Origin: Dehalococcoidia bacterium | Lineage (GTDB): Bacteria; Chloroflexota; Dehalococcoidia; SHYD01 | Reading direction: 5' to 3' | DNA length: 64,000 nucleotides | Assembly: GCA_965226775.1 (NCBI GenBank) | Contig: CBDDEI010000002.1 | Coordinates: 2,082,467-2,146,466 of the forward strand | Shown: piece by piece, positions 11,193 to 41,665 of the stretch | Layout: every line of letters starts with the position of its first letter | Position numbering within the stretch: position 1 is the first letter of the stretch | Program-made: the position numbers and the translations under genes | Notes under the pieces: generated by a model | Seen by the model: the letters and a program-made list of their open reading frames with translations, nothing else | Told to the model about the DNA's origin: nothing | The model's database searches: none

Positions 11193-11302
11193 CAAGTTCC
11201 TCCTTGTTCTCGGGGACAACCCACTCTTCAGCCACTGGCAAGGCCGCGGCTAAAGGAACCGCAACGTTTGTCCCTTACGTTGTACTTGAGATGCTAGTGC
11301 AG

Positions 11303-11333
11303 ATACATGAGTAATTCATGACGTGTTCATGAG
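11303..11333 (-). promoter_or_regulatory. Three direct TCATGA(A) repeats at 11-bp phasing upstream of binding-protein gene A (candidate response-regulator operator)
   Basis: aCATGAg, TTCATGA, TTCATGA at 11304, 11315 and 11326. An AACGT-N9-ACGTT palindrome lies nearer the gene. The same pattern is conserved in copy B. Confidence 0.35.
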
Positions 11334-11360
11334 AATTATCACGATCGGGCGCCATTGCGC

Positions 11361-11436
11361 GGTGGCCGTAGCCGAGAGGTTAAGGCGCATGGTTGTGGCC
11401 TAGGAGAACGTGGGTTCGAATCTCACCGTCCACCCA
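11361..11436 (+). tRNA. tRNA-His(GTG)-like second copy, probable pseudo-tRNA
   Basis: Same anticodon loop, but a C5-U68 mismatch in the acceptor stem, an A-G mismatch in the anticodon stem, a D-loop change and no upstream promoter. Confidence 0.55.
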
Positions 11437-11498
11437 TTCTCCCCCTGAGAGTGCTTCTCCTGCACCAAGCTTCCCCAACATCCCCAGTAATATAGAAA

Positions 11499-11532
11499 GC
11501 CGCCGCGAGCATAGCTCGCGGCGGCTTTCTTC
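11499..11532. terminator. Duplicated bidirectional terminator hairpin
   Basis: GCCGCCGCGAGC-atag-CTCGCGGCGGC TTTCTTC. Confidence 0.7.
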
Positions 11533-11578
11533 TAGCGGTCTGACGAGGAGATTAACCTCCCCTCATCTGCGCCTAGTG

Positions 11579-13339
11579 CTATTTGTCTATCCATGCATTG
11601 ATTGCTGGGTAGCCTTGATCCAGGTGCGCAGAATAGTTCTTCACGTAAGGATGCCAGAAGAACGCATTGGGAGACCGGGCAATGGCAATGCCAAACGCCT
11701 CTGTATTGATGTAGGTGATTGCTTCCTTCATGATCGCCCGACGCTTCGTCGGATCACCCTCTCGTCGCTGCGCCTCAATGTACGTCTTCAGCTTATCGTC
11801 TTTCACACTCGTGTAGTTAAGACGCTGGTCGGGGTAGTAGTATCCGTACAGGCTGTAGTCCGCGTCTGGGCGACCGTACTCGCCGAACCAGTGCATCTCA
11901 AACAAGCCCTTCTTCCGGTCTCGAGAAACTTCTGCACGAGGCCGCACATCAAACTCTACTGTAATCCCCACCGTTTTGAGCTGGGCTTGCAAGAGCTGCG
12001 CAAGGGAGCGCTCTTGATCGGTCCCTAAGTCTGTCAACAATGCGAATGTGAAGCCATTCGGGTAGCCAGCTTCAGTAAGGAGACTCTTCGCCTTTTCCCG
12101 GTCAAAGGGCTGTAATGCCTTTACCTCTTCTTGCGTGAAGATGTCCACAAAGGTGTTGGCGCCCGCCAACCCATACGTTCCGCCGCCCATAACCGTAATG
12201 AATTCATCCCGATCGATGGCCAGGGAGACGGCCTGACGCACTAGCTGACTTTGGAAGGCAGGAAACTGATAGTTCATCAGTACGTAGCGGGGAGTGCCGG
12301 GGTAATCTTGGCGGAGCGCCTCAGGGTTCTGAGTTGCCAAGTCCTTGATCCCCTGGCCGCTGGACGAGTTCATGACGTCTAGCTGTCGCGTTTGGAATGC
12401 CGCAAATGCGGTCGCATCCTCCGGCAACACCAGGTAGCGAATGTCGTCTAAGTAGATTGAGTCCGCATCCCTATAGGTGGGGTTTTTCGTGAATACCGCT
12501 CTGGTACCCTTTTGGGTATCCGCGTCACTGTGTTGGAAGGGGCCAGTACCCACAATATTCGTGGAAAAATCCCCCTCAAGCTTCAAGAGCTCTTTCGGGT
12601 AGATGGGGTTGAACGCGCTGCTCGCATAAGTTAAGAACGGCGCGAACCCATCCTTGAACTTGACCACTACGGTGTAGTTGTCCGGCGTTGTGATGCTATC
12701 AAGCCCGGCCCACATGAACCCGTTCTGGCTGGCCTTAAGATCGGAGAAGTCACCGGTGCTGGAAGTATAGTGATAGCTCCACTTCGCGTCCGCAGCGGTA
12801 AGCTCACGGCCGTTAACGGGAGCTATGTTGGCATACTTCACGCCCTTCTGGAGGTAGAAGGTGAAGGTCTTGGCATCGGCTGAAACCTCCCACCTCTCTG
12901 CCAGCTCCGGCTCAATGGTCTTGTCAAAGTAGTTAATGTTCGGATGAGGTGTTTCCCTCTGCTTTAAGAGACTGTCGTATGCAACGCGGATGCCGTTGAC
13001 ATTGTTGGAATTCTGCCCGTTTATCCGCATATTCCAGTCTGTCATGTCCGTGGTGTTCCGAATCCTGAGCGTACCGCCAGTCTTCGGCTTCCCCATTGCA
13101 TCGCCCTCGGTCTTCGCCATTGCGTCGTCCGTCTTGGGCTTCGCCATTGCGTCGCCGCTCTCGGTCTTCGCCATTGCGTCGTCCGTCTTAGGCTTCTCCA
13201 TGGCATCGCTGCTCTCGGTCTTCGCCGTTGCAGCGCTGCTACTAGACGCAGCTGGCTGTGCGGGCGCGGCGGGCGCCGCGCAGGCTAGTGCGATCATCAT
13301 CGAAGCGATCACTAAATAAAACACTGGCTTATATTGCAT
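11579..13339 (-). CDS. ABC transporter substrate-binding lipoprotein, family 5, copy B (about 90% identical to copy A)
   Basis: Likely start ATG at 13337-13339 with a GGAGGT RBS (MQYKPVFYLVIASMMIALAC). Same architecture as copy A. Confidence 0.85.
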   Translation of the reverse strand: MQYKPVFYLVIASMMIALACAAPAAPAQPAASSSSAATAKTESSDAMEKPKTDDAMAKTESGDAMAKPKTDDAMAKTEGDAMGKPKTGGTLRIRNTTDMTDWNMRINGQNSNNVNGIRVAYDSLLKQRETPHPNINYFDKTIEPELAERWEVSADAKTFTFYLQKGVKYANIAPVNGRELTAADAKWSYHYTSSTGDFSDLKASQNGFMWAGLDSITTPDNYTVVVKFKDGFAPFLTYASSAFNPIYPKELLKLEGDFSTNIVGTGPFQHSDADTQKGTRAVFTKNPTYRDADSIYLDDIRYLVLPEDATAFAAFQTRQLDVMNSSSGQGIKDLATQNPEALRQDYPGTPRYVLMNYQFPAFQSQLVRQAVSLAIDRDEFITVMGGGTYGLAGANTFVDIFTQEEVKALQPFDREKAKSLLTEAGYPNGFTFALLTDLGTDQERSLAQLLQAQLKTVGITVEFDVRPRAEVSRDRKKGLFEMHWFGEYGRPDADYSLYGYYYPDQRLNYTSVKDDKLKTYIEAQRREGDPTKRRAIMKEAITYINTEAFGIAIARSPNAFFWHPYVKNYSAHLDQGYPAINAWIDK

Positions 13340-13457
13340 TAAGCACCTCCTAAGTTCTTGGGATAACCCACTCTTCAGCCACAGGCAAGGCCGCGGCTGA
13401 AGAAACCGCAACGTTTGTCCCTTACGTTTACGTTGTAATTGAGATGCTATTGCAGAA

Positions 13458-13485
13458 ATATGAGTAATTCATGATGGATTCATGA
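13458..13485 (-). promoter_or_regulatory. TCATGA(A) phased direct repeats upstream of binding-protein gene B
   Basis: aTATGAg, TTCATGA, TTCATGA at 11-bp spacing. An AACGT...ACGTT palindrome is also conserved. Confidence 0.35.
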
Positions 13486-13632
13486 GAAATAGTAAGAGCG
13501 GCACTTTACCACACTTAACCACGCCTACCTCACTATAGCGTCATTGGGAACTCATGCGGCCCTAATCTAATGACCTTACAGTCCTAGCACCTGTACTTAC
13601 GAGCAGCATAGAGTAAGAAGGAGGTAGCCACA

Positions 13633-15507
13633 ATGAGTACTAAGGCATGGCTAGTAGCCCTGTCCATCAGCGCACTGCTGGTAAGTGCCTGCACTGCGGC
13701 CACACCCGCGGCGCCCGCTGAAACCAGCGGGTCCACGAGCAGCGGCGCCAGTAGCAGCAGCGACACCAGTAGCAGCACCAGTGGTACGAGCGACACCAGC
13801 AGCAGCACCAGTGGGACCAGCGACACCAGCAGCAGCACGAGCACCACCAGCAGCCCTAGCGCGACTCCTGTCCCCGCTGCCAGCAGTAGCAGTAGCACGA
13901 CCAGCACCACGGGCAGCGGCGAAACCAAGAAGGAAACCGGCGAAGCCGCAAAAGCCGAACAGGTGATGAAAGACACCGCCGGCAGCTCGGACGTCGTATG
14001 TGAAGAAGGCAAGGAGTCCTGGCGCTCCCCCGGTCCCCCCGTCCGCGGCGGCAGCCTTGTCTGGGCTACTTCGCCCGTCAGCCATCTCGAGAGCGGCGGC
14101 GCGTTCCAGGTCTACAACAGCCTGCTCCAAGAGCGTAAGTGCTTCGTCACCGACCGCGTCATCGTCCCCAGTCTCGCGAAGTCCTGGGAGGTCTCCCCTA
14201 ACGGCTTGACCTGGACCTTGAAGCTCAACGACAACGTGAAGTGGCAGAATATGCCCCCGGTCAACGGCAGAGCCTTCGACTCCTCCGACGTGGCCTGGAT
14301 GATTGACTACCAGAAGGAAAAAGGACGCGAGCGCGTCTGGTGGGAACACGTCAATTACACCACCCCAGACAAGTACACCATCGTCCTGACCCTTACCCGC
14401 CCTGACCCCGACTTTGTCTACAAGCTGGGGGCCGGCGCTAACCTCATGAAAGCCAAAGAGGTCTTTGAGCAGGACGCCGGCTTCCGCAAAACCGCCGTCG
14501 GCACCGGCGCCTATATGGCGCATGACTGGAAGACCGGCCAAGGCGTCACCGGCGTTAAGAATCCCGACTACTGGGAGACGGGCGCAGACGGCAAGCCTCT
14601 CCCCTACCTCGATGAGATCAAGAAGGTAGCTTTCGGCGATATCGCCGCGGAGTTGGCCGCAATGCGGGCCGGACAAACGCACCATCCCGGCACCTTTGGC
14701 TTCCGCCCCGACATGCTGAAGATCCTACGAGATAGTGATCTGAAGCTGACCTTCTACGACATCCTCCCTCCCATCCATGGCGCCGTGTGGTTCGATACTA
14801 CTTCTGCGCCCTGGAACGATAAGCGGGTGCGCCAAGCCACCCTGAAGTCCATCGACCGGGAATCGCTCATCATCTCCTTGCAGGGCGGCGTTGTTCACTC
14901 GGGCTATGTACCCGGCCCCTTTACCGATGCGGCCTGGTCTGAAGCAAAGACGATTGAGAAGTTCGCTCAGGACATCCCTGCCGCCAAGAAGCTCTTGGCC
15001 GAAGCCGGCTACGACGGCAGTGGCCCCCCCGCCAAGATGACTACCACCGGCCAGTATGCCCAAGAAGCCGAAGTGGTCCAAAACTTGATGAAGAAAGCTG
15101 GCTTCAACGTGGAGCTCGAGGTCGCGCCTGACCGCTCCTGGACCACCACCATGCGGAAGTTGAAGTTCGAGATCGGCTGGGGCGTCGCGGGAGGCTCCAT
15201 CACAGAGTTCCCGGTCTACTACCTCTGCCAGCTGGTGACCGATAACCCTCTGAACACAACTCGGTACGGTGATGCCACCATCGATAACCTGTGCGGAACC
15301 CAGGCCGTTGAGCTAGACCCCGCAAAGCGCAAGGCTATCTGGGATCAGCTCCAGGACCACCTCTATGACGTAGTGCCTTACGTGCCCACGGTCGGCACCA
15401 TCTACGGCATGGCTTTGGCCTGCGAAGTCAAAAACTACAAGCGTGTCCACACCGGCCGCAATCCCTCCGGATTCGTCCGGGCCTGGCTCGACAAGACCGG
15501 CTGCTAA
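13633..15507 (+). CDS. ABC transporter substrate-binding lipoprotein, family 5, with a Ser/Thr-rich tether
   Basis: Strong AAGGAGG RBS. LLVSAC lipobox. The DTSSSTSGTS tandem repeat is followed by a family-5 binding-protein domain. Confidence 0.85.
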   Translation: MSTKAWLVALSISALLVSACTAATPAAPAETSGSTSSGASSSSDTSSSTSGTSDTSSSTSGTSDTSSSTSTTSSPSATPVPAASSSSSTTSTTGSGETKKETGEAAKAEQVMKDTAGSSDVVCEEGKESWRSPGPPVRGGSLVWATSPVSHLESGGAFQVYNSLLQERKCFVTDRVIVPSLAKSWEVSPNGLTWTLKLNDNVKWQNMPPVNGRAFDSSDVAWMIDYQKEKGRERVWWEHVNYTTPDKYTIVLTLTRPDPDFVYKLGAGANLMKAKEVFEQDAGFRKTAVGTGAYMAHDWKTGQGVTGVKNPDYWETGADGKPLPYLDEIKKVAFGDIAAELAAMRAGQTHHPGTFGFRPDMLKILRDSDLKLTFYDILPPIHGAVWFDTTSAPWNDKRVRQATLKSIDRESLIISLQGGVVHSGYVPGPFTDAAWSEAKTIEKFAQDIPAAKKLLAEAGYDGSGPPAKMTTTGQYAQEAEVVQNLMKKAGFNVELEVAPDRSWTTTMRKLKFEIGWGVAGGSITEFPVYYLCQLVTDNPLNTTRYGDATIDNLCGTQAVELDPAKRKAIWDQLQDHLYDVVPYVPTVGTIYGMALACEVKNYKRVHTGRNPSGFVRAWLDKTGC

Positions 15508-24620: not shown

Positions 24621-26005
24621 TCCGCTACCCGAAACGCCTCGAACTCGGTCAACGCTTCGTCCCAGCCCTCCCGCGTCTCCGACCCGATAGCGTCGGCGGC
24701 GCGGTAACCCATGTAGAGTGAGTGATGGGTGTTGTTGTGCAGGAACAGCCCCTGACGGCCAACCAGCCACAGGTTCCGGAAACCCTCCATCCACGCCATC
24801 ACTGTCTTCATTGACTCCTGATAGGTGAGGTCATAGATGGGGTAGACCTGGCTAAAACGGCGGCTGAACACCTCCTCCACCTCATCGGCGGCAACCAGCC
24901 CAGCCTCGTGCAGCGCGGGCAGCACGTACTGTAGCAGGTCGGCGTCGGAAGCCGAGATGATATCGCTATCCGGGTTGCAGGGGATGTCTAGGCAGAGCAC
25001 CGTGTTGCCGGCAGGGCTCATGCGAGGGCTGAACTTCTTGAACTCCACCGCTCGGTTAAAGGGGAACTGGGGCTCGGGAAAATAGTAGGTATCGGCATCA
25101 CCCACGTTTGGTTTGTTGAGCGCCAGGTAGAGGAGCACCACCGCGCGGTAACGCAGGTTGCCCACGGCCTCCCGCACCTCATCCGGCGGCGCAGGAGTCA
25201 TGCGTCGCACCAGCTCCGGCAGGGGCGCGCTCCAGATGCAGTGGCCCGCGGCCGCCTCCTGCCGCAGCCCGCGCGCCTCGTAGCGCACCGCGACCACCTG
25301 GTCCTCCGACCACACCACTTCCTGCACCGAGGCGGCGCGCTCTATGGTGACGCCATCCATACCTTCCAACGCCTGCTCGTAGGCTGCGGGGATCTGCCCA
25401 AAGCCGCCCTGGGGGTAATAGTATGTCGCCGGCGCGCCCCTGCCCGCAGCGGCCCGGAGCAGATCAGTAAAGCCGCGCTGGTTCACCCGCCGCTCCGCCT
25501 GGGCCACGGCGATCTGACTGCCCGGGAGACCCCAGGTTTTCTCCGCGTAGGGGCCGTAGAAGAGGTCGTAGAGGGGTCTGCCCAAGCGGCGCACCAGCAA
25601 CGCTTCGTAGCTGCCCGCCGGGCTGGAGTTACCCTGCGCCTTCGCAAGTGCAATGCCAGCGGTGAGGGCCGCGAGTCTGGGAATCCCCAAACTGAGGGCA
25701 GCACGCGGCCCCAGCGGATAGGGTACGTAGCGGCCTGCGACTCGAATCTTACCGTGACGCGTGCGCTGAACAAGGTCTTGTCCGAGCAGCAGTTGGAGGT
25801 CGCGCAGGACGTCCGGAGCCAGCTCTGTATGGAGACGGTGGGGCCCAAAGTCCAGGATGTAGTCTTTGTGCCGGAACCCGGCGGCCAGGCCCCCTAGCAC
25901 CGGCGCTCGTTCCAGTAGCAACGAGCCGACGTCCCAGCGTTGCGCGAGGCGGTAGGCAGCAGCCAGTCCTGCCGGCCCTCCGCCCACGATCACTACCGAG
26001 GCCAC
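24617..26005 (-). CDS. FAD-dependent oxidoreductase, UDP-galactopyranose-mutase / amine-oxidase superfamily
   Basis: N-terminal VVIVGGGPAGLAAAY dinucleotide-binding motif. YAEKTWG and YYPQGGFG resemble Glf motifs. Confidence 0.55.
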   Translation of the reverse strand: MASVVIVGGGPAGLAAAYRLAQRWDVGSLLLERAPVLGGLAAGFRHKDYILDFGPHRLHTELAPDVLRDLQLLLGQDLVQRTRHGKIRVAGRYVPYPLGPRAALSLGIPRLAALTAGIALAKAQGNSSPAGSYEALLVRRLGRPLYDLFYGPYAEKTWGLPGSQIAVAQAERRVNQRGFTDLLRAAAGRGAPATYYYPQGGFGQIPAAYEQALEGMDGVTIERAASVQEVVWSEDQVVAVRYEARGLRQEAAAGHCIWSAPLPELVRRMTPAPPDEVREAVGNLRYRAVVLLYLALNKPNVGDADTYYFPEPQFPFNRAVEFKKFSPRMSPAGNTVLCLDIPCNPDSDIISASDADLLQYVLPALHEAGLVAADEVEEVFSRRFSQVYPIYDLTYQESMKTVMAWMEGFRNLWLVGRQGLFLHNNTHHSLYMGYRAADAIGSETREGWDEALTEFEAFRVAD

Positions 26006-26032
26006 ACCGTCTTGCTATAAGAGAAAAGGGGG

Positions 26033-27505
26033 CTAAGCACTGCTTTGTGCTCTGGCACGCAACCACCGGTGGCTGTAGATCATTCCTGCGCACAGGAGAA
26101 GCCAGAACCCAGTCAGGATCCAGGTGCGGGGCTCGTAGCTGGTGTAGAAGGGATACGCCTGGGCCAGTAGCCGGAAGGGCTCCCAGGCCAGGGCAAAGGG
26201 GTCCACTACGAGCACCACATCCTCCGCCGCCGCCTCTGCATACAGCGCGCGAGTAATGAGCAGCGTATACAGCCCCAGCACCGCGGCGCTCCCCATCCAC
26301 AGCGCCGAAACCTGCACCCGGGAGAGCGTCCATGCCAGGAGCGGCGCGAGCAACGGCAGCACGACAATGAGCATGCGGCCGGGGAACCACCAGCCGCGCA
26401 TCGTCAACGATAAGAAGGCGGCAACCAGCACTTGCGTCACCAACAGCAGCGCGAGGGTCCAGCGCACGCGAGGAGGCTGTCTGAGGAGCCACGGCACGGC
26501 CGGCAGCGCGAGCAGCAGGACTGGCGTCCACCGCAGCACACCAAACTCGCCATCGAACCACAGCCCTGCCAGCCTGTAGAGACGCTCCCACAGTACAAAG
26601 TGGCTGCCCACCAGCTCCAGGGTATCCTTGCCGGCGTACAGCACGTTCACCACGTAGGGCGTCAACCCGCCGTAGGTCGCCAGGTGGAACCAGGCGTAGC
26701 CCATGCCCGTGACCGCTGTGCCCAAGAGGAACGGCCCGCGCAGACCGGCCGGCATACGCGCCAGGGCGATGAGCCCGGCTACCGCACCCACCAGCAGGTA
26801 CTTGCTGCCCAGCCATGCCAGACCGTTGAACGCGAGCAGCAGCAGCAACGCGCCGCGCCAACCCAAGCGAGGCTGCACCAGGATAAGCGTCGCAAGGACG
26901 AGGCAGAGGGCGGCAGGCATCTCCGGATAGACCTGCGTGCTGTAGACAAAGAGGGGGGCGCTGAGCCCCAGCAGCCCAGCCGAGATAACGGATGCGCCGA
27001 GGTTCCCGGTGATGCGATAGGCAAGGAGCATCATGCCCGCCGCGGTCAGGCCGCCGATAAGTCCCAGGAACCCCTTAGCCGCATCGACGCCGCCCAGCGC
27101 GTAGGCCGGCGCGATGAGCAGCGGCAACCCCACGTTGTGCGGGGAGAGGATGCGCCCCTGCGCGTCCGGCGCAGATTGATGCCATAGCGGCTGGGAATGA
27201 TCATAGTACGCGGTGTAGCGCTTCAGCTCGTAGTCGTTGCGGAGGTCTAGGTCGCCGTCCTCTAATAGGCTCACCGTAGTCAGCAGATAAAAGGGTTCGT
27301 CCGCCGTGACGCGTGCGCCGTGGCTGGCCCGCAGGGGCACGCCCCACTGGTAACACCATGCCAGCACAACCGCCAGCAGGAGCGCCGTACACACAACGGG
27401 AAGCGTGAGCCTCCCAACTTCACCCCGCTGCGTAGCCTGGGATTCGGCGCGGCGTTGCAGCAACCCTGCCAGGCCCGAGCGCGCGCCGGCCAGCGTCGTG
27501 CTCAC
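26033..27505 (-). CDS. Multi-pass membrane glycosyltransferase-like protein (GT-C fold, ArnT/PMT/DUF2029-like)
   Basis: More than ten predicted TM helices. An acidic first loop (DEPFY...EDGDLDL). Probable start GTG at 27503-27505, overlapping the stop of the upstream GT2 gene. The first ~100 aa of the track ORF overlap that gene and are treated as non-coding. Confidence 0.5.
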   Translation of the reverse strand: MSTTLAGARSGLAGLLQRRAESQATQRGEVGRLTLPVVCTALLLAVVLAWCYQWGVPLRASHGARVTADEPFYLLTTVSLLEDGDLDLRNDYELKRYTAYYDHSQPLWHQSAPDAQGRILSPHNVGLPLLIAPAYALGGVDAAKGFLGLIGGLTAAGMMLLAYRITGNLGASVISAGLLGLSAPLFVYSTQVYPEMPAALCLVLATLILVQPRLGWRGALLLLLAFNGLAWLGSKYLLVGAVAGLIALARMPAGLRGPFLLGTAVTGMGYAWFHLATYGGLTPYVVNVLYAGKDTLELVGSHFVLWERLYRLAGLWFDGEFGVLRWTPVLLLALPAVPWLLRQPPRVRWTLALLLVTQVLVAAFLSLTMRGWWFPGRMLIVVLPLLAPLLAWTLSRVQVSALWMGSAAVLGLYTLLITRALYAEAAAEDVVLVVDPFALAWEPFRLLAQAYPFYTSYEPRTWILTGFWLLLCAGMIYSHRWLRARAQSSA

Positions 27506-29744
27506 GGCTCCAGTAGCTCCTGGGCCATCGCGGGGATCACCCGCCGCAGATACTCGCGGTAGCGGATGAAGGAGCGTCCATGGGAACGCAGTTGGTAGGA
27601 CACGGGAGTCTGGCTCAACCGCATCCCTTTGCGGAGCAGGTCCAGGGTGAGCACCTGCGCGTAATTGTAGTCGTGGCGGATCTCCGCCAAGGCCAGCGCC
27701 CGCGCGCTGAAGGCCCGATATCCTGTCTGGCCGTCCTGCAACCGCTTGCCTGTTAGCAGGGAGACCAGCAGCGTGAATGCACGGTTGCCCAATTTGCGAG
27801 ACCAGCACATGACGCCGTTCGCGCAGGGAAAGCGGGAGCCTAGCACGTAGTCGGCGTCCCCGTGCAGCACCGGCTCCAGCACCGCAACCATATCAGCGGG
27901 GTCGTACTCGCCGTCGCCATCCAGATAGACTACTGCGCCCGCGCCCCGTGCAGCGCCGCGGTCAGGCCGGTCCGCAGCGCTGCGCCGACGCCCTGCCGCG
28001 TATCGTGGCGCACCACCACGTCGGCTCCTGCGGCGCGCGCCACGGTGCCCGTGTCATCGGTAGAGCCGTCGTCCACTACGATGACCCGCACGCTGTATCC
28101 CATCGCACTTAGGGCGGCGCGGGGCACACCGGAGACCACCCGTCCGACCGCAGCGGCTTCGTTAAGCGCGGGAATCACTACAGCAACCCAGTTGCCTGCA
28201 GGAAGCGGCGCAGCGGCGGGCAGCGGGTGGTAAGAGAGCCACCACTGCCGCAGCAACACAATAGCGGCTAATGCTGCCATGCCAAAAAGCAGCGCCTCTC
28301 CAGGGCGGGACGCTCCGAGGAGGATGCTTTGAGCGGTCAGTGTAGGCCACAGCGCTCCCACGAGTGTTGCGCCCACGGCTGTACGCTGCCCCAGCGCCAA
28401 TGCGCCGGCAATACCTAGCCCAAGTGCAATACCGCTAGCTGTCAGGGAGAACACCCCAAAGAGCGCCACGAAAGCCAGCGGGACCAAGAGCAGCACGGGC
28501 AATGCCCGCAAGGGCAGGTGGTGGGTCTTGCCCAGCAACGCCAGCGGCAGTGTGGCCGCCAGTCCTGGCAGCAGCGTCCAGCCGTGCTCCGGCAGCGCCA
28601 CTATGAGCGCAGCAGCCAATGCCACCAGGATGCCGTGGTCGACGTAGCGACTCAGCGGCAATGAGCTAGTACGCCATCGCTGCAACAACTCCTGGGCCCA
28701 CGGCAGCCGCCAGCTAGCGGGCAAGCTGCCAGAGGCTGCTCTTGGCACGAGTTGCCCCAGCAACGCAAACGCACCGCCCTCAAAAGCGCAGCTAACGGCG
28801 CCGGTTGCGTAGGAGTAGACAAACTTGAGGCCGTGGGTGGATAGCGCAAGGGCAAGGGCCACTGTGGGGTCTACCCCGAAGAGGGTTAGTCCTCCCGCCT
28901 GGGCAACCTCGTAGACGCCCAAACCGCCGGGGGTTACCTGCACCGTCTGGAAGAGGATAGTAAACGCAGTGACCGCCACCGCTGCCTCAAAGGCTAGGGG
29001 CACACCGCCAGCCTGGGCTACCACCCAGAGCACCGTGCCTTCCAGCACCCAGCTCGGCAGCACCAACGCCCAGGCCAGGGCGACGCGGGGCGCTTCCAGC
29101 CCTTTAGCAAAGTCCGCCAGTATGCTCAACAGCCGTCGAAAGCGGCCTAAACGGCTCAGCAGCAGCGCGCCGCCCAGGGCAGCAACTGCGGCGATTCCCG
29201 TCACGCCGCCCAGCAGCGCCACTTGGGGCGAATCCAGGCCGGTCAGGAGCGCGGTAGCGACAAGAGCGAGGCCAAGCACCGCACCCAGGTCCAGCAACCG
29301 GGCCAGCACGGTGGTGCTAGCCGCTATAGGCAGCGCAATGCCTCGGCCTGCCAGGAGCACGATACGCAGCGGCTCGCCGACCTTAATAGGAAAGAGGTGG
29401 TTGGCGAGCAGCGAAATATGCAGGATGGCGAGCAGATGGAGAGTCTGACCCCCGTTGCGGCCCAGCAAGACCCGCCACGCCCAGGCCCGCAGCAGGAACG
29501 CGCCGCCGTAGCCCGCAAGGAAGAGCGCCAGCCACTGGGGCGTGAGCGAAAGGCCGCTGATGGTCGCCAACACCTGTGCGCTAAGGGGAGAGTAGGACAG
29601 CGAAAGGAGGAGAAGGAGGAGCGCGCCCGCCGTGCAAACCAGGCTAAGGACGCTCCAAGAGGCCCGCCCCTGCAGCGACCGCTCTGCGCGCTGACCCAGT
29701 TGCGCCGCATAGTTGAGACTGGGCTTGGGAAGACTCTGCTGCAT
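27502..29744 (-). CDS. UPF0104 (flippase-like / lysylphosphatidylglycerol-synthase TM domain) fused to a GT2 glycosyltransferase; interrupted by an apparent 1-bp frameshift at the CCCC run 27944-27947
   Basis: ORF 27930..29744 holds the TM domain plus the GT2 N-part (VVIPALNE...DDGSTDDT). ORF 27502..27891 holds the GT2 C-part (DADYVLGSRF...). Removing one C restores AALHGAGAVVYLDGDGEYDP. Confidence 0.7.
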
Positions 29745-29770
29745 GCTAGCCTCGGGTGTGAACGGAGCGA

Positions 29771-30829
29771 CTACGTGGGGGTTGAGCCTACTACTTCTTC
29801 AGCGGCAGCGAAGACCTGCACCGGGCCGACCACTTCAACCTCCACCCGCTGACCCAACTCGAAGGCATCGGCCACATCCACCCGAGCGCGGATCACCCGG
29901 CCGGAAGCAAGCTGAATCGCGTAGCGCTGGGCGTGACCAAAGTATTCGCGACGCATCACTTGGCCGCGCCCATCTGCTGCGGCCTGTAGCCGCACGCACT
30001 CCGGCTTCACATAGATGTCCACCGGGCCGACTGCTTCGCCGCTAAACTGCAGGTCGCCCAGCTCGCACACGACGCGGTCGTTGTGTGCCTTGCCTGGCAG
30101 ACAGTCCATGTCTCCCACAAACTGCGCAACCTCTCTGGAAATAGGGGTCTGATACACCATTTCCGGCGTATCCACCTGCAGCACGCGTCCCTCCCACATC
30201 ACCGCCACCTTATCGGCCAGAGACAGCGCCTCTTCCTGGTCGTGAGTCACGAAGACCGCGGTTGCGCCGGCATTTTCCAGGATCTCACGCACTTCGGCGC
30301 GCACCCGGGCCCGCAACGTCGCGTCGATGTTGGAGAAAGGCTCGTCCAGCAGGATAACCGCAGGCTGAGGGGCCAGCGCCCGGGCCAGCGCGATGCGCTG
30401 CTGCTGCCCGCCGGAGAGCTGGTGCGGGAAGCGCTCTCTGAGGTCGGCCAAACCCACCATCTCCAAAATCCGTGAGACTGCGCTGTTCCGCGCCTCCTTG
30501 CTCATATGCATCAGCCCAAAGGCCACGTTATCTGCCACGTTCATATGGGGGAAGAGCGCGTAGTCCTGGAACACCATACCCACGCGTCGTTGCTCCGGCG
30601 GCATTACGCGGCCGCGGTCTGCGACCACTCGTCCGCTGATCTCGATTCTGCCGGCGTCGGGCGCTTCAAAGCCGGCCAGCAAGCGTAAGGTGGTGGTCTT
30701 GCCGCAGCCGCTGGGCCCGACCAGAGAGAGCACTTCCCCCTCCGACACCTCCAGGTCGACGCCGTCCACCGCCGTGGTGTGGCCAAAGCGCTTAGTCAGT
30801 CCGGTGCAGCGAATCACTACAGAAGCCAT
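29771..30829 (-). CDS. ABC transporter ATP-binding protein with C-terminal TOBE domain (FbpC/PotA-like)
   Basis: Walker A GPSGCGKTT, signature LSGGQQQR, Walker B ILLDEP. The C-terminal ~100 aa extension is TOBE-like. Confidence 0.85.
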   Translation of the reverse strand: MASVVIRCTGLTKRFGHTTAVDGVDLEVSEGEVLSLVGPSGCGKTTTLRLLAGFEAPDAGRIEISGRVVADRGRVMPPEQRRVGMVFQDYALFPHMNVADNVAFGLMHMSKEARNSAVSRILEMVGLADLRERFPHQLSGGQQQRIALARALAPQPAVILLDEPFSNIDATLRARVRAEVREILENAGATAVFVTHDQEEALSLADKVAVMWEGRVLQVDTPEMVYQTPISREVAQFVGDMDCLPGKAHNDRVVCELGDLQFSGEAVGPVDIYVKPECVRLQAAADGRGQVMRREYFGHAQRYAIQLASGRVIRARVDVADAFELGQRVEVEVVGPVQVFAAAEEVVGSTPT

Positions 30830-33540: not shown

Positions 33541-34071
33541 TTACGGCGTCACCGTGAACGCCACCCACATGCCCAATTGATAGTGGCTCTCCAACCAGCC
33601 TCCCTCTATTTCCGCGATGTTGCAGATGAGCGCGTACTTGCCGGGCGTCAGATTGAATACTCCCGATGCCTTAGAGTTTGCCGTAAAGGGCCTTACTTCA
33701 CCCACTAGGTTTACCTTGTCCTCGGGCACTCTTCCTTCAGATGTCGGAAGGCCCTCAGGCGAAAGGTCTGTCTTGATAATGACCAACTCATGGACATCAT
33801 CCGGACCCTGATTGTCAACCAGGAAGTAGACGTTGCCGGCCTTGACTGTTGTGGTCTGCAACTCAATGGCCCACTCTCTGAGTGTCACGTTCACTTGGGT
33901 TGCGCCCGCTGGCTTTGGCTCAACAACGCCTGGCTCGGCAGCGACTCCGCTTACGGAGACAGAGGCCGAACCGCCCAAGTTCTCCACGGTCCCTGGACGC
34001 GGTTCCGCCTGGCAGGCGACCGCAAGAAGAGCTAAGGCAAGTGCGCTCGTAAATAGAAGCCGTGGGCTCAT
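33541..34071 (-). CDS. Cupredoxin-like lipoprotein (putative metal-binding)
   Basis: LAVAC lipobox. Beta-rich domain with candidate His/Cys/His/Met ligands (DVHEL, LICNIAE, ESHYQLGM). Confidence 0.4.
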   Translation of the reverse strand: MSPRLLFTSALALALLAVACQAEPRPGTVENLGGSASVSVSGVAAEPGVVEPKPAGATQVNVTLREWAIELQTTTVKAGNVYFLVDNQGPDDVHELVIIKTDLSPEGLPTSEGRVPEDKVNLVGEVRPFTANSKASGVFNLTPGKYALICNIAEIEGGWLESHYQLGMWVAFTVTP

Positions 34072-34148: not shown

Positions 34149-34415
34149 CTATCTGTTTGGTATGTCAATTTCGGACTTAGTGGGACCAGAAGTCTCAGGT
34201 TCTAGCCCAACTGGAATGAAGATTCCCTTAGCGCTGGAATCGGATGGCACGGCTGGTGTTGGGGCCGGCGCCGCAACCGCAGAAACAGATACGCTCCCTC
34301 CTGTGCCGTCGCCTATCGTCTCAACCGTGACTGGCCGGGCTTCCGCCTGGCAGCCTAAGGCCGCCGCGGACAAGAGAAAAACGCTTACTATAGTGAACCA
34401 ACGCGTAAGGAACAT
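34149..34415 (-). CDS. Truncated paralog of the upstream cupredoxin-like lipoprotein (lipobox plus linker only)
   Basis: LGCQAEARPVTVETIGDGTGGSVSVSAVAA resembles VACQAEPRPGTVENLGGSASVSVSGVAA of the neighbour, then terminates. Confidence 0.35.
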   Translation of the reverse strand: MFLTRWFTIVSVFLLSAAALGCQAEARPVTVETIGDGTGGSVSVSAVAAPAPTPAVPSDSSAKGIFIPVGLEPETSGPTKSEIDIPNR

Positions 34416-34757
34416 TCCTTACAACCTCCCAACTGTTAATTTATTGATTAGGGTAGACTAATTAGGTAACCCTAATAACAATTGTTAGAGATTATATAGC
34501 TACATTATTAGGCTGTCAATAGTAAATCTCTTCCCTGTTTAGAATATTCAGAACTATTTTTTGCCCTCGAGCGTCTTTGCTGTGACTGCTTCTTGCTAAC
34601 GTTGCTGATGCCCAATAGAGCGGCAGCAGTTCTAGACACCACCTTCCAAGGAGCTCGGCACATTCACGACGATTAGCCACGGACAATTGACAGTGGTTGT
34701 AGCTTGCCCGCATCATGATTGAGCTATGCCGTTGACACATTTAGTTAGATTCCGACG

Positions 34758-36215
34758 ATGGCTTTTACCGACCTTCACCAATTTGTAGAGTTCCTGGACC
34801 GCAACCACCAGTTGCAACGGATCAAGGCGTCCGTTGACCCGGTGCTGGAGCTCGCCGAGATCACGGACCGTGTCTGCAAGGCAGACGGCGGCGGCACTGC
34901 CCTCCTCTTTGAGCACGTGCAGGGTTCGAGCATGCCCGTGCTCATCAACACCTTCGGCAGTGAGGAGCGTATGTGCTGGGCGCTGGGCGTGGATAGCCTG
35001 GACGATCTGGGCGCGCGCATCAGTCACCTGTTGAGCATGAACATGCCCACTTCCTTTGTGGAGCGCGCTAAGAAGCTCCTGGAGATGAGCGAGGTTGCCC
35101 GCTTCTCACCCAAAGTGGTGAGCCAAGCCCCCTGCCAGGAACTCGTAGAGACCATCAATCCTTCTCTGGCAGACCTTCCCATCATGCAGTGCTGGCCTAA
35201 CGATGGAGGCCGCTATATCACCTTCCCCCTGGTCTTCACCAAGAACCCTTCTACTGGGCAGCGCAACGTGGGGACGTACCGCCTCCAGGTCTACGACGAC
35301 CGTACCCTGGGGATGCACTGGCACATCCATAAAGGCGGCGCAGAGCACTTCCGGCAGGGCCAGGAACGCGGCCGGGGGTTAGAGGTCGCCATCGCTCTGG
35401 GCGCGGATCCGGTCACCATGTACGCCGGCACCTGCCCGCTCCCGCCTATCGTGGACGAGATGATGCTGGCGGGGTGGCTCCGTCGCGAGCGTGTAGAGAT
35501 GGTGAAGGGTGTAACCGTAGACCTAGAGGTGCCAGCCCATGCGGAGATCATCCTGGAAGGCTACGTTGACCCGGACGAGCATCGCACAGAGGGCCCATTC
35601 GGCGACCACACCGGCTTCTACTCCTTGGAGGACGAGTATCCTGTCTTCCATCTGACCGCGGTCACCAGACGTCGCGATGCCATCTACCCGTCGATTATTG
35701 TTGGACGGCCGCCCATGGAGGACGGCTGGCTGGGAAAGGCTACGGAACGCCTCTTTCTGCCGCTGATACGGTTAATCCATCCAGAAGTGGTGGACATAAA
35801 CATGCCCTTTGAGGGCAGTTTTCACAACCTGGTGATTGTCTCTGTTCGCAAGTCCTATCCCGGCCAGGTGCGCAAAGTGATGTACGGCCTATGGAGCCTT
35901 GGCCTCTTGATGCTTGCCAAGAACATCATCGTGCTGGATGAAGACGCGAACGTGCACGATGCAAGCGAGGTGGTGTGGCGCATCACAAACAACGTCGACC
36001 CCAAACGAGACGTGGTCATTGTTGATGGACCGCTGGATGCCCTGGACTACGCATCGCCGATGCCGCACTACGGCTCTAAGATGGGCATAGACGGCACTAA
36101 GAAGGGGCCAATGGATGGACACACCCGACCCTGGCCGGAAGAGGTCACCATGTCGCCGGAGGTCAAGGAATTGGTCACTCGGCGCTGGCAGGAGTACGGC
36201 ATCCGGCTCAACTGA
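34758..36215 (+). CDS. UbiD-family aromatic acid decarboxylase (UbiD/MqnL-like)
   Basis: ALLFEHVQGSSMPVLINTFG and other UbiD-conserved blocks. 485 aa. Confidence 0.85.
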   Translation: MAFTDLHQFVEFLDRNHQLQRIKASVDPVLELAEITDRVCKADGGGTALLFEHVQGSSMPVLINTFGSEERMCWALGVDSLDDLGARISHLLSMNMPTSFVERAKKLLEMSEVARFSPKVVSQAPCQELVETINPSLADLPIMQCWPNDGGRYITFPLVFTKNPSTGQRNVGTYRLQVYDDRTLGMHWHIHKGGAEHFRQGQERGRGLEVAIALGADPVTMYAGTCPLPPIVDEMMLAGWLRRERVEMVKGVTVDLEVPAHAEIILEGYVDPDEHRTEGPFGDHTGFYSLEDEYPVFHLTAVTRRRDAIYPSIIVGRPPMEDGWLGKATERLFLPLIRLIHPEVVDINMPFEGSFHNLVIVSVRKSYPGQVRKVMYGLWSLGLLMLAKNIIVLDEDANVHDASEVVWRITNNVDPKRDVVIVDGPLDALDYASPMPHYGSKMGIDGTKKGPMDGHTRPWPEEVTMSPEVKELVTRRWQEYGIRLN

Positions 36216-36262
36216 AGTTCAACAAACAAACACTCCTAACGAAGAGTTGAGGCCTCTCCCCA

Positions 36263-36919
36263 ATGCGGGTAAAACACGGACATTACAAGTACAAAACGCC
36301 CTTCCGTGCTCATTCCCTCCTGTCCGACGTGCCGCTGCACGATGTCTGGGCTATCCTTCTACACGCACGCGGGCCCAAACGCAACATTCAGGATGTGCGA
36401 CGCGTCCTTGCCTCCCTGCGCACTGAGCACCCTGACCCGCTTGTGGACTTCTTTCTGCGCGCCCGGCAGCGGCTAGGACGCATCTTTGAGTGGGACGATG
36501 AGAACCACGGCACACCGGACAGCTCTTACGTGCATCGTCTCACGCCGGACGACCGCAGCCGCTCTTTGGAGCCGCCGGGGACAATTGATCCCGCCTCCGA
36601 CTTTCGCGTGCTCTACGTCTTTGAGGACGAGGCCGCCTTTGAAGTCATTAACGGCACAGGGCAGTCCTTCTACGTCATCGCAATGGAACCTGTGGCCGAA
36701 GGCTACATTCTATATGCCGCAGTCTACGTGAAGCAGACGAGCTTGTGGACCCCCTTCTACACGGTCGTAGCAGACCCCTTTCTCCGCTACATCATCTACC
36801 CCACTATCATCCATAACCTGGAGTCATTATGGGCGGGGCTCTACGCCCGGACGCGCCAGCACGCGCCGCCGCCGCCGCCGCCACTTCCTCCCCCTAGGTC
36901 ATTGAGAGGCCGGTTCTGA
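36263..36919 (+). CDS. Hypothetical protein with a poly-proline C-terminus, translationally coupled to the downstream prenyltransferase
   Basis: No recognised domain. Its stop TGA overlaps the ATG of the next gene (ATGA at 36917-36921). Confidence 0.5.
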   Translation: MRVKHGHYKYKTPFRAHSLLSDVPLHDVWAILLHARGPKRNIQDVRRVLASLRTEHPDPLVDFFLRARQRLGRIFEWDDENHGTPDSSYVHRLTPDDRSRSLEPPGTIDPASDFRVLYVFEDEAAFEVINGTGQSFYVIAMEPVAEGYILYAAVYVKQTSLWTPFYTVVADPFLRYIIYPTIIHNLESLWAGLYARTRQHAPPPPPPLPPPRSLRGRF

Positions 36920-37776
36920 TGCTGCTCTACCGCAAGCTGCGTCTGCTCCTTGAGAACATCCGCTTTGAGCAGTCCGTGTTTGCCCTGCCCTTTGCCTACC
37001 TGGGCATGGTGCTGGCGGCCCAGGGCCTGCCCACGCTTTACCAATTCTTGTGGATCACGCTCGCCATGGTGGGCGCGCGCAGCTTTGCCATGAGCATGAA
37101 CCGCCTCCAAGACTTAGACTTAGACCTTCGCCATATGCGAGCACGTGAGCGGCCAATCCCTTCAGGACGGTTAAGCATTGCGGAGGTGCTGGTGTTCAGC
37201 CTGGCCGCCGCGGCGCTCTTGCTGTTCGCCGCCAGCCAGCTCAATCCGCTGTGCGTCCTGCTCTCCCCCCTCGCCCTAGTGGTGTTCTCCGGCTACTCTT
37301 ATGTGAAGCGGGTGAGCTGGCTCACTCACTTTGTGCTGGGCATCGCGCTGGGCGGCGCGCCGGTAGGGGGCTGGATTGCAGTAACGGGCACATTGGGCTG
37401 GGAGCCGGTGCTGCTCGGACTCTCCGTAGCGGCCTGGGCCAGCGGGTTCGATGTGCTCTATGCCTGCGGAGACGCCGACGAGGATCGCGGTTTGGGCGTC
37501 AAGACTATTCCGGTGCGCTTCGGCATCCCGACTGCGCTGGCGCTCTCTGCCGTGCTCCACGTGATAACGGCGCTGTTGCTCATCAGTGTGGGGGTTGCCT
37601 TTGGGCTAAGCTGGCCTTATTGGCTCGGGCTAACCTTTACCCTTGGCCTCTTGGCCTACCAGCACCGCGTGGTCACTCCAAACGACCTCTCTCGCCTCAA
37701 TGCGGCCTTCTTTACCGTGAACGGTGCAGTGTCCCTCGTCATCTTTCTCAGCGCCTTCATCAGCCTGCCGCGCTAG
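36919..37776 (+). CDS. UbiA-family polyprenyltransferase (4-hydroxybenzoate / dihydroxynaphthoate prenyltransferase-like)
   Basis: Asp-rich motifs (NRLQDLDLD, DVLYACGDADEDR) in a membrane protein of about 285 aa. Confidence 0.8.
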   Translation: MLLYRKLRLLLENIRFEQSVFALPFAYLGMVLAAQGLPTLYQFLWITLAMVGARSFAMSMNRLQDLDLDLRHMRARERPIPSGRLSIAEVLVFSLAAAALLLFAASQLNPLCVLLSPLALVVFSGYSYVKRVSWLTHFVLGIALGGAPVGGWIAVTGTLGWEPVLLGLSVAAWASGFDVLYACGDADEDRGLGVKTIPVRFGIPTALALSAVLHVITALLLISVGVAFGLSWPYWLGLTFTLGLLAYQHRVVTPNDLSRLNAAFFTVNGAVSLVIFLSAFISLPR

Positions 37777-37834: not shown

Positions 37835-38491
37835 GTGGCTGAGCAAGCAGAGACCCACGAGCTTCCCCTCTTTCTCCTAAATACCGTCCTGTTCCCCAGA
37901 ATGGAGCTGCCGCTCCGTGTCTTTGAGCAACGCTACCGCGAGATGGTGGCCTTCTGCATGGAAAGGGACCAGACCTTTGGCGTCGTCCTCATCAAACACG
38001 GAAACGAAATCGGCATACCGGCCGTACCCTACTCCGTGGGCACTGCCACGCATATCGACTCCATTGAGAACTTGGCAGACGGCACGCTGGCGGTGATGAC
38101 CAGTGGCGTCCGGCGCTTTGTGCTGGAGGAGGTAATCCAGGAACGGCCCTTCCAGATAGGGCGCGTCACCTATCCGGACGACACCGCTAATCCCCTCTCG
38201 GACACTGCCTTTGCGGAGATACGGGAATTAGCAGCGCGCTGCGTTCAACGCTGGCTAGCGCTCAACCGCCAGTGGATGCGTGAACCACCGCTGCCTCGCA
38301 GCCAGCGCGGCCTCTCCTTCTCCATCGCCACGCGCTTGCCTCTGGAGATGGACGTCAAACAGATGCTGCTGGAATGTCCCAGCGCATCGGAACGCCTGGA
38401 AAAAGAACGAACGCTCCTCGCCCAAGAAGAGGAGCGTCTCAACCGGCTTATTCTGGAGCAGGCCTGGCTCCAGACGGCCAGAATGAACTAG
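37835..38491 (+). CDS. LON N-terminal (substrate-binding) domain protein
   Basis: LPLFLLNTVLFPRMELPLRVFEQRY matches the Lon N-domain signature. No ATPase or protease part. Confidence 0.7.
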   Translation: MAEQAETHELPLFLLNTVLFPRMELPLRVFEQRYREMVAFCMERDQTFGVVLIKHGNEIGIPAVPYSVGTATHIDSIENLADGTLAVMTSGVRRFVLEEVIQERPFQIGRVTYPDDTANPLSDTAFAEIRELAARCVQRWLALNRQWMREPPLPRSQRGLSFSIATRLPLEMDVKQMLLECPSASERLEKERTLLAQEEERLNRLILEQAWLQTARMN

Positions 38492-38856: not shown

Positions 38857-39442
38857 GATAGGGATTGACTCCTTGTAACCCTAGTACCGGCGCGGCCTCT
38901 TTCATGGCATCAATGACAAAGGCGATGTGCTCCTTCATGTCCAAGTCCATGTCTTCAATGCCTACCCGGATATCCTCGCGGCTGACCGACCTCGCAAAAG
39001 CCTTGTCTTTCATCTTCTTGATGACCGAATCCGCATCAACTTCCCATATGCTCTTGTTGGGCTTGACCAGGGCCGTAGCGGTAACCAGACCCGTTAACTC
39101 ATCTACAGAAAAGAGGGCCTTATCCAGCAACGTAGAGCGGGGCACACCCGTAGCCGCGTTGTGGGCCATCACCGCATGGACCACCTCCTCCGGAAAGCTG
39201 CGCTCCGTGAGAATGCGTCCTCCCACCGTGGCATGCTCTTCTGGCGCGGGATATTGCTCGTAGTCAAAATCATGGAGCAGTCCCGTCATGCCCCAGAGGT
39301 TCCGATCCTGCTTGAATTTCAACGCGTAGGCCCGCATCACTGCCTCAACGGTCAGTCCATGCTTAACCAGGCTGTCTGCCTTAGTCAGCTCTGAGAAGAC
39401 TTCCCAGGCATCCGAGCGGGTTTTCTTGCTGGCCTCTGCCAT
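38846..39442 (-). CDS. HD-domain phosphohydrolase
   Basis: The LLHDFDY H-D dyad and AHNAA are present. Confidence 0.7.
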   Translation of the reverse strand: MAEASKKTRSDAWEVFSELTKADSLVKHGLTVEAVMRAYALKFKQDRNLWGMTGLLHDFDYEQYPAPEEHATVGGRILTERSFPEEVVHAVMAHNAATGVPRSTLLDKALFSVDELTGLVTATALVKPNKSIWEVDADSVIKKMKDKAFARSVSREDIRVGIEDMDLDMKEHIAFVIDAMKEAAPVLGLQGVNPYRDR

Positions 39443-40870: not shown

Positions 40871-41665
40871 ATGCGCAAGTTCGTTTCTACTAGACCTGAC
40901 CCCTACGCTGCCATTGCCAGGTTCTACGACCTGGAGTACAGGGATTACGATGAAGACCTTCCCCTCTACCTGAGCCTTGCTCAGAAGAGCGGCGGGCCCA
41001 TACTGGACGGCGGCGCTGGCACAGGGCGCGTCGCTCAGGCGTTGGCGGAAGCAGGACACACCGTGGTGGGACTAGACATCTCGCCCGCGATGCTGGAGCT
41101 TGCGCAGCAGCAGATTCCGAAGGACATCGCAAAGCGCATCACCCTGGCGCTGGGCGACCTGCGGAAGTTCAGCCGCCCGGAGCGGTTCACCCTTGCCCTG
41201 CTGGCCGTCAACACCTTCGACTACTTTGCAACGCGGGAGGAGCAGGAGCAGGCCCTCAGCTGCTTATGGGAGCACCTGGCGCCGGAGGGGATGCTGGTTA
41301 TAGCGCTCCAGAATCCGTATCTCTGGGCAGTGGACACTCAACAGCACGAGACTATTCTTGAATGGGACCTCGCCGGCCCTGATGAGGGAGAGCACACGAA
41401 GAAGTTCTCTTCCGGATGGTCTGATCTCGCTAATCAAGTTCGCCATGTTGCTTTATGGTATGATGTCGCAGGCCCCAGCGGGGCGCTCCACCGTATTTCC
41501 ACCTCCATGACTCTCCGCTGGAGCTACCGTTTTGAGCTTGAGTTGCTTCTGGAGCAGGCGAGTTTTCACGCCGAGCAATGGTACGGCTCCTACGACTTAG
41601 AGCCGTATATGGACGACAGCCCCTTGCTCCTTGTAGTGGCAAGAAAAGCCCCCAAAAAACGGTAG
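40871..41665 (+). CDS. Class I SAM-dependent methyltransferase
   Basis: ILDGGAGTGRV motif I. LDISPAML. Confidence 0.8.
   Translation: MRKFVSTRPDPYAAIARFYDLEYRDYDEDLPLYLSLAQKSGGPILDGGAGTGRVAQALAEAGHTVVGLDISPAMLELAQQQIPKDIAKRITLALGDLRKFSRPERFTLALLAVNTFDYFATREEQEQALSCLWEHLAPEGMLVIALQNPYLWAVDTQQHETILEWDLAGPDEGEHTKKFSSGWSDLANQVRHVALWYDVAGPSGALHRISTSMTLRWSYRFELELLLEQASFHAEQWYGSYDLEPYMDDSPLLLVVARKAPKKR

Follow-up and report, generated by a model that had tools for sequence, protein, structure and literature searches.

In a narrow Dehalococcoidia lineage, mqnL and mqnP flank a DUF2867 gene: a candidate accessory factor of late menaquinone synthesis

A 64,000-nt stretch of a Dehalococcoidia genome (contig CBDDEI010000002.1, positions 2,082,467 to 2,146,466 of the forward strand; hereafter the window) carries a gene for a UbiD-like decarboxylase and a gene for a UbiA-like prenyltransferase, and a third gene lies between them on the same strand. 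The question raised by this locus is whether the middle gene takes part in quinone synthesis or simply came to rest there. To our knowledge, the order and physical setting of the final steps in the futalosine route to menaquinone have so far only been predicted, and we know of no account of how a membrane prenyltransferase and a soluble UbiD-type decarboxylase share their greasy substrate. Ubiquinone synthesis meets the same substrate problem with the help of lipid-binding proteins. We found that the middle gene encodes a member of the DUF2867 family, predicted to adopt an SRPBCC/START fold, and that the mqnL-DUF2867-mqnP arrangement varies a known operon in a new and rarely seen way without amounting to a system of a new kind. 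Tentatively, we read the DUF2867 protein as an accessory carrier for quinone intermediates; that its gene is a passenger in the operon is almost as likely.

A DUF2867 gene in an mqnL-mqnP locus

For the source genome, which belongs to Dehalococcoidia, the analysis covered the window and a second, 13-kb copy of the region (L007) from genome OZ244809.1. This is the chromosome of a Dehalococcoidia metagenome-assembled genome (MAG) whose MqnL is 99% identical to that of the window. The first-pass annotation of this DNA had described the middle protein as having no recognisable domain. That description has to be withdrawn: the protein matches Pfam PF11066 (DUF2867) with 38.6 bits (gathering score, 27), and the match covers nearly the full profile (residues 21-180, positions 3-141 of 142). 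Each of the 60 aligned homologues is likewise recognised as DUF2867, whereas no other Pfam family was found in the window protein at E<=1 and none in more than four of the 60 homologues. The 98 relatives that we identified are annotated only as DUF2867 or hypothetical proteins and most are 190-205 amino acids (aa) long, and the family comprises approximately 1,450 clusters at 50% identity (E<=1e-3). We found no functional literature on DUF2867. Across 60 sequences, including the window protein, 15 residues are invariant (H17, L20, L25, H26, D27, W29, R68, G72, E123, E127, N130, T132, Y166, Y179 and P180), while the near-invariant family positions H134, M167, I170 and R174 are altered in the window protein (H134Q, M167T, I170A).

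The proline-rich C-terminal tail that had been noticed earlier is real: the protein ends ...HAPPPPPPLPPPRSLRGRF, and the tail as a whole (RTRQHAPPPPPPLPPPRSLRGRF) contains nine prolines, five arginines and no acidic residue. It is limited to the proteins encoded between mqnL and mqnP (the syntenic subclade), where it is weakly conserved besides its richness in proline and arginine (P0002 ends ...HQPQPPAPTRRLR and P0003 ends ...PPQTARRRR); most other DUF2867 homologues end near residue 192-197. The tail may be read-through into an old junction, or a tether to the membrane or to a partner. No hydrophobic segment was found in the window protein (maximum 19-residue Kyte-Doolittle mean of 1.36).

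The outer genes form an mqnL-mqnP pair, which is assigned to the last steps of menaquinone synthesis by the futalosine route. The upstream open reading frame (ORF) encodes UbiD_N, UbiD and UbiD_C domains, each above its gathering score, and matches TIGR03701, the equivalog model for menaquinone biosynthesis decarboxylases of the SCO4490 family, with 619.9 bits against a cutoff of 495.9; the match aligns residues 8-441 with the full model (positions 1-433 of 433). Its score against the E. coli-type UbiD model NF008175 falls far below the cutoff (420 vs 788). The downstream ORF matches PF01040 (UbiA) with 186 bits, passes the UbiA-like subfamily model TIGR01475 (269.4 vs a cutoff of 180.8) and contains both Asp-rich motifs (NRLQDLDLD and DADED) in its translation. 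It scores below the cutoffs of the MqnP-specific NCBIfam models, which are narrow "exception" models (MqnP_DT, 296.9/430; MqnP_SCO4491, 274.4/420; MqnP_Cj_Hp, 204.3/375), and MqnP-type models rank second, fourth and seventh among its best matches. The protein is therefore MqnP-like but lies outside the clades that the narrow models describe. An MqnP orthologue is encoded directly 3' of mqnL on the same strand in 45 of the 79 other genome loci that we surveyed. The orthologues beside mqnL are 35-65% identical to the window protein in the genome loci and 78-83% identical in two metagenome contigs (L005 and L006), and in other genomes the two genes mostly overlap or have a gap of under ~200 nt between them. 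The TIGR03701 match, the UbiA and MqnP-type matches and the pairing in 45 other genomes together support the earlier proposal of a late menaquinone module of futalosine type. MqnL and MqnP were predicted to catalyse the last futalosine steps by Ravcheev & Thiele 2016 (PMC4746308), and later phylogenies treat the pair as MqnPL (PMC11874023).

Other genes of the pathway were sought in the window. As stated earlier, it has no UbiX/MqnM gene: none of its scanned ORFs matches PF02441 (Flavoprotein family), and a tblastn search of the window with two UbiX proteins from related loci returned nothing better than E=4. None of the early futalosine genes mqnA-D/E was found in the 64 kb. A methyltransferase encoded at 40871-41665 was considered as a MenG/UbiE-type enzyme and rejected (TIGR01934, 29.7 bits vs a cutoff of 158).

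The three ORFs are present on the plus strand as first described (Table 1), and mqnP starts 704 nt 3' of the mqnL stop codon. The overlap of the DUF2867 stop codon with the mqnP start codon is also genuine, although it does not have the ATGA form that had been given: the junction reads TTC TGA TG, a 1-nt overlap within TGATG. The same overlap is found in loci L001, L006 and L007, and L005 has a 7-nt spacer instead. At the other junction the spacer equivalent to that of the window measures 48 nt in L001, 73 nt in L005 and 41 nt in L006. A promoter-like site lies within the 342-nt gap between mqnL and a divergent gene, and a scan to position 39000 revealed no further promoter-like site downstream of it on the plus strand. 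The mqnL/DUF2867 spacer has no plus-strand promoter-like or terminator-like site (its sole match, at 36247-36263, is on the minus strand), and no such site was found on the plus strand at either junction of the three genes. From the sequence, mqnL, the DUF2867 gene and mqnP form one apparent transcription unit.

Table 1. Features of the mqnL-DUF2867-mqnP locus (positions in the window)
Feature	Position	Strand	Description
Promoter-like site TTGACA-18-CATCAT	34687..34716	+	10/12 consensus matches only; ends ~42 nt 5' of mqnL start
mqnL	34758..36215	+	485 aa; UbiD-family, prenylated flavin mononucleotide (prFMN)-type decarboxylase of futalosine menaquinone pathway
mqnL/DUF2867 spacer	36216..36262	+	47 nt
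DUF2867 gene, whole ORF	36263..36919	+	218 aa (657 nt)
DUF2867 core, residues 1-195	36263..36847	+	Predicted SRPBCC/START helix-grip
Pro/Arg-rich C-terminal tail	36848..36916	+	Predicted disordered; also holds the sequence directly 5' of mqnP start
TGATG junction	36917..36921	+	DUF2867 stop TGA (36917-36919) shares one base with mqnP ATG (36919-36921)
mqnP-type gene	36919..37776	+	285 aa; UbiA-family polyprenyltransferase, membrane protein
Lon N-terminal domain gene	37835..38491	+	Stand-alone substrate-binding domain; PF02190, 110.5 bits; 58 nt 3' of mqnP

Distribution of the trio and constraint on the middle gene

Our survey covered 80 genome loci with MqnL orthologues, including L007, which is from the window's own species. 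The DUF2867 gene lies between mqnL and mqnP only in L007 and is missing at the other 79 loci, among them those of the nearest relatives (L008, with an MqnL 74% identical to that of the window, and L054, 68%). The trio is also present in two short metagenome contigs. In L006 the DUF2867 protein is 71% identical to that of the window, the MqnL C-terminus 87% and MqnP 83%; the corresponding values for L005 are 57%, 85% and 78%. When a profile of this subclade was searched against 5.8 billion proteins, only three clusters at 90% identity were recovered (400-438 bits), the next match scoring 211 bits. No relative of the middle protein above 49% identity was found in the JGI metagenome collection. 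In a neighbour-joining tree the syntenic subclade is monophyletic, and a long branch sets it apart from the other DUF2867 proteins. The lack of the gene at 79 of the 80 loci, the recovery of only three clusters and the lack of UbiD and UbiA relatives near the homologues outside the subclade (see below) suggest that the simplest history is a single gain of the DUF2867 gene in a narrow Dehalococcoidia lineage. The first-pass annotation had treated the middle gene as an integral component of the module and had itself named its absence from orthologous ubiD-ubiA loci as the observation that would speak against this; absence is what we found at 79 of 80 loci. The gene is no general component of the module, but a lineage-specific functional link may exist, since the trio has been kept, with stop and start overlapping or nearly so, in a narrow clade with saturated synonymous sites.

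The genes that recur beside mqnL are mqnP (45 loci), UbiX-like genes (20) and ubiE-like genes (9). In one case, L080, the gap between mqnL and mqnP is occupied by a ubiE-type methyltransferase gene and a UbiX gene. An unrelated gene, for a Uma2-family putative restriction endonuclease (PF05685, 110.8 bits), occupies this gap in L011 (Chloroflexota MAG OZ241866.1, 7516-8103). The larger mqnL/mqnP gaps of L022, L028 and L029 contain no convincing ORF.

The middle gene shows signs of purifying selection. Its ratio of nonsynonymous to synonymous change (dN/dS) is 0.12 in comparison with L001, 0.22 with L007 and 0.14 with L006, while synonymous divergence (dS) reaches 1.4 against L006 and is saturated against L005. 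The values for the neighbouring genes are 0.05-0.07 (mqnL) and 0.10-0.16 (mqnP), which indicates a faster evolution of the DUF2867 gene than of the genes beside it, though under clear constraint. Given the family scores and the purifying selection, all three ORFs can be regarded as real genes and not chance ORFs. It is very improbable that the middle ORF arose by chance within a high-GC spacer or is what remains of a gene in decay. Its DUF2867 score is the weakest among the 60 aligned homologues and the ORF is broken in one related contig, L004 (ERZ25766727, ctg327430_3x_l), but it is full length, has all 15 family-invariant residues, gives low dN/dS in all three comparisons and is intact in L001, L005, L006 and L007. 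The breaks in L004 are most likely assembly indels and not marks of a pseudogene, because mqnL and the gene for a stand-alone Lon N-terminal domain (Lon-N) are split in the same contig, a long-read assembly of only 3x coverage. A recent horizontal transfer of the DUF2867 gene was considered and ruled out by its native composition (core GC of 0.585 and GC3 of 0.72, both matching the neighbouring genes).

Predicted fold and possible roles of the DUF2867 protein

An AlphaFold2 model was built from the 60-sequence alignment (pLDDT 83.1, pTM 0.77). The predicted elements run from a strand (residues 25-34) through two helices (42-55 and 59-74), a less confident helical stretch and four strands within 114-158 to a long C-terminal helix (163-195). 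This beta-alpha-alpha-beta(n)-long C-terminal alpha order is that of a helix-grip fold. The last ~23 residues are predicted to be disordered, with a pLDDT of 55-67 over the last blocks. The named Foldseek matches belong to the SRPBCC superfamily, with weak E-values, and the family profile found no match among PDB sequences at E<=10. The protein is soluble, and its first ~195 residues are confidently predicted to adopt an SRPBCC/START helix-grip fold, with a disordered tail behind them. As it has no PDB match, no other Pfam family and Foldseek matches at the superfamily level only, it counts as a divergent protein of the SRPBCC fold, outside every characterised branch. Membership of the COQ10/PasT or CoxG families was ruled out, since DUF2867 is its only Pfam match, and a comparison of structures revealed no preferential likeness to either over other SRPBCC branches.

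The genomic contexts of the wider DUF2867 family are mixed and include MerR regulators, sigma factors, glyoxalase-like genes and a transposase. P0247 (222 aa), the closest outgroup of the syntenic subclade, with which it shares the INxTG and MEPxxEGYILY motifs, is encoded 33 nt 3' of a type II NADH:quinone oxidoreductase (NDH-2; Pyr_redox_2 and NDH2_C domains; L167:1099-3098, ERZ23486287). In three loci (L171:3287-5323, L172:3465-5491 and L173:4058-5709) the DUF2867 gene stands between genes for a sigma-70 factor and a DoxX membrane protein, with stops and starts overlapping or 4 nt apart. Among the best 150 family representatives, 18 have an N-terminal extension of ~135 aa with 3-6 hydrophobic, transmembrane-like segments (for example P0105, P0107 and P0119). 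The extension has no Pfam match, and in one of the extended proteins, P0122 (616 aa), a metallo-beta-lactamase domain is present at the C-terminus as well. The NDH-2 adjacency, the DoxX gene order and the hydrophobic extensions are hints of a connection of the family to membranes or quinones. A 145-aa gene 5' of the DUF2867 gene in L003 was considered as an unfused counterpart of the extension and discarded, as the two are not homologous. In another locus, L168, a gene for a sigma factor of the extracytoplasmic function (ECF) type lies directly 5' of the DUF2867 gene.

We tentatively suggest that the DUF2867 protein carries prenylated naphthoquinone intermediates, as an accessory factor that the pathway does not strictly need, in a manner comparable with COQ10 or CoxG. 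The protein would be made together with MqnP and would shelter polyprenylated naphthoate or demethylmenaquinone at the membrane surface, so that soluble MqnL or downstream users could reach a substrate made by the membrane-embedded MqnP, while the cationic tail might hold it at the anionic membrane or near MqnP. START-fold proteins are known to bind ubiquinone or menaquinone and to pass the quinone to soluble enzymes (PMC13525633; bioRxiv 10.1101/2024.01.09.574806), and we favour a carrier because this precedent coincides with the predicted fold, the retention of the gene, its linkage to mqnP and the quinone and membrane hints among its relatives. The evidence for the quinone link itself consists of narrow synteny and the fold, and the pathway works without the DUF2867 protein in nearly all other organisms.

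Several observations besides the absence from 79 of 80 loci weigh against a carrier. No UbiD or UbiA relative was found in 82 loci (371 kb) of homologues at 42-49% identity, and clustering of the neighbours across these loci revealed no conserved partner, the best being a MerR-type regulator in 8 of 82; the NDH-2 adjacency concerns 1 of 84 loci. In the other lineages surveyed, no SRPBCC-like or other small lipid-binding gene recurs beside mqnL, and the Uma2 gene of L011 indicates that the mqnL-mqnP junction tolerates passenger genes. Nonsynonymous change in the DUF2867 gene proceeds at ~3-6 times the rate of mqnL, and the window protein has lost some near-invariant residues of its family (H134Q, M167T, I170A). 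Many of the invariant residues are polar (H17, H26, D27, R68, E123, E127, N130, T132, Y166 and Y179), and they would be no less fitting in an enzyme, or in a protein with a polar ligand, than in a lipid carrier.

Alternatively, a stand-alone DUF2867 gene, with a stress-linked or small-molecule-binding role unrelated to menaquinone, may have landed in the short mqnL-mqnP junction of one lineage and have stayed there through little rearrangement since. Co-transcription and the stop/start overlap would then be by-products, and the tail would be read-through into the former junction. The absence of the gene elsewhere, the restriction of its subclade to three clusters, the heterogeneous contexts of the wider family, the unrelated gene at the same junction in L011, the poor conservation of the tail and the faster nonsynonymous change than in the flanking genes all fit this explanation, which we consider almost as likely as a carrier. 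It accounts less readily for an insertion that is tightly coupled to mqnP, lacks a promoter-like site of its own and has been kept across saturated synonymous divergence. Also against a passenger, the long branch of the subclade fits a changed role after recruitment, and the fold has repeatedly been used for hydrophobic and quinone ligands (PMC13525633). A catalytic SRPBCC protein, in the manner of polyketide cyclases, norcoclaurine synthase or lachrymatory-factor synthase, might instead have the head group of the naphthoate or naphthoquinone, or some other small aromatic compound, as its substrate, which would imply a modified quinone or an extra chemical step in this lineage. The 15 invariant columns (including a His, a His-Asp, an Arg, two Glu on one strand, an Asn, a Thr and two Tyr) form a pattern that resembles an active site or a polar binding site more than it does a simple lipid tunnel. 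We nevertheless consider such an enzyme improbable: the late steps of prenylation, decarboxylation and C-methylation each have a known or predicted enzyme (MqnP, MqnL/MqnM and a UbiE-type methyltransferase, respectively; PMC4746308), with none missing, and the window protein has lost a near-invariant histidine (H134Q) and has neither a catalytic-motif match to characterised SRPBCC enzymes nor any other Pfam match at E<=1 or PDB match.

A broader version of the carrier reading seems doubtful to us. According to it, the DUF2867 protein would be the first dedicated lipid-carrier factor of the late futalosine steps, extracting prenylated naphthoate or demethylmenaquinone from the membrane and presenting it to MqnL, and the whole family, including its membrane-anchored members and those adjacent to NDH-2 or DoxX genes, would handle quinones or isoprenoid lipids. 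A START-fold gene in an mqnL-mqnP operon is a concrete and testable candidate for a helper and, if the carrier reading is true, would offer the first functional handle on DUF2867. Should the gene be a passenger, all that is left is an mqnL-mqnP locus of the common kind, without further implications. Under either reading, so rare an arrangement is of limited general importance.

Other features of the window and relation to known systems

The Lon-N gene that follows mqnP may be co-transcribed with it but is not counted as belonging to the quinone module, and no such gene was found beside mqnP in the other 79 genome loci. L169 (3385-6286), from the metagenome sample that also yielded L004, has a DUF2867 gene with a DDE transposase gene on one side and a convergent Lon-N gene on the other, the Lon-N protein being 37.5% identical to that of the window; this may be a coincidence or a second recurring neighbour.

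Elsewhere in the window, a single 616-aa ORF at 6001-7851 (+) encodes a fused EtfB-EtfA, with the electron transfer flavoprotein (ETF) beta part at residues 1-256 and the alpha part at ~284-611. Three paralogous family-5 (peptide/nickel type) substrate-binding proteins of ATP-binding cassette (ABC) transporters, each of ~600 aa, are encoded in a row at 9432-15507, two on the minus strand and one on the plus strand. The region 26001-30000 has an unusually strong AT skew (0.22-0.26) at a GC content of 0.66 and holds two long minus-strand genes, a 591-aa ORF without a family match and a 604-aa protein with LPG_synthase_TM and glycosyltransferase-2 domains. Two adjacent small ORFs at 33541-34071 (-) and 34149-34415 (-) encode secreted or lipoprotein-like products without a family match that share an N-terminal region (18 of 35 residues identical, E of 8e-07), the 88-aa product of the latter resembling a truncated paralogue of the 176-aa product of the former.

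Compared with mqnL-mqnP pairs of the SCO4490/SCO4491 type, the window has the same order, with the decarboxylase gene 5' of the prenyltransferase gene on the same strand, but its pair is separated by a 657-nt gene. Elsewhere the pair is accompanied by UbiX/MqnM (20 loci) or a UbiE-type methyltransferase (9 loci), neither of which is near the pair in the window. Compared with other PF11066 proteins, which are typically stand-alone and ~190-205 aa long, the window protein has the common N-terminal MRV...DVPLHDVWA signature and keeps all of the family's 15 invariant residues. It differs in its added Pro/Arg tail and in several altered near-invariant positions, is at most 49% identical to any protein outside its subclade and belongs to the only subclade found beside quinone-biosynthesis genes.

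Its likeness to COQ10/PasT/CC1736, the START-fold ubiquinone chaperones, is one of predicted fold only: there is no sequence-family relation, structural comparison places it no nearer to them than to other SRPBCC branches, and the window protein has an extra helical insert at ~42-100. CoxG, whose START fold serves to draw menaquinone out of the membrane for CO dehydrogenase, has a C-terminal transmembrane anchor, whereas the window protein has no hydrophobic segment; CoxG also serves a redox enzyme, while the gene of the window protein sits in a biosynthetic operon. UbiJ and UbiK, together with UbiT, are accessory lipid-binding factors of ubiquinone biosynthesis that are widespread in that pathway. 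With them the candidate shares the concept of a non-enzymatic lipid-binding protein that is encoded with quinone genes and presents polyprenyl intermediates to soluble enzymes. The fold of these factors is SCP2 and not SRPBCC, and they are widespread, whereas the DUF2867 gene of the window is confined to one small lineage.

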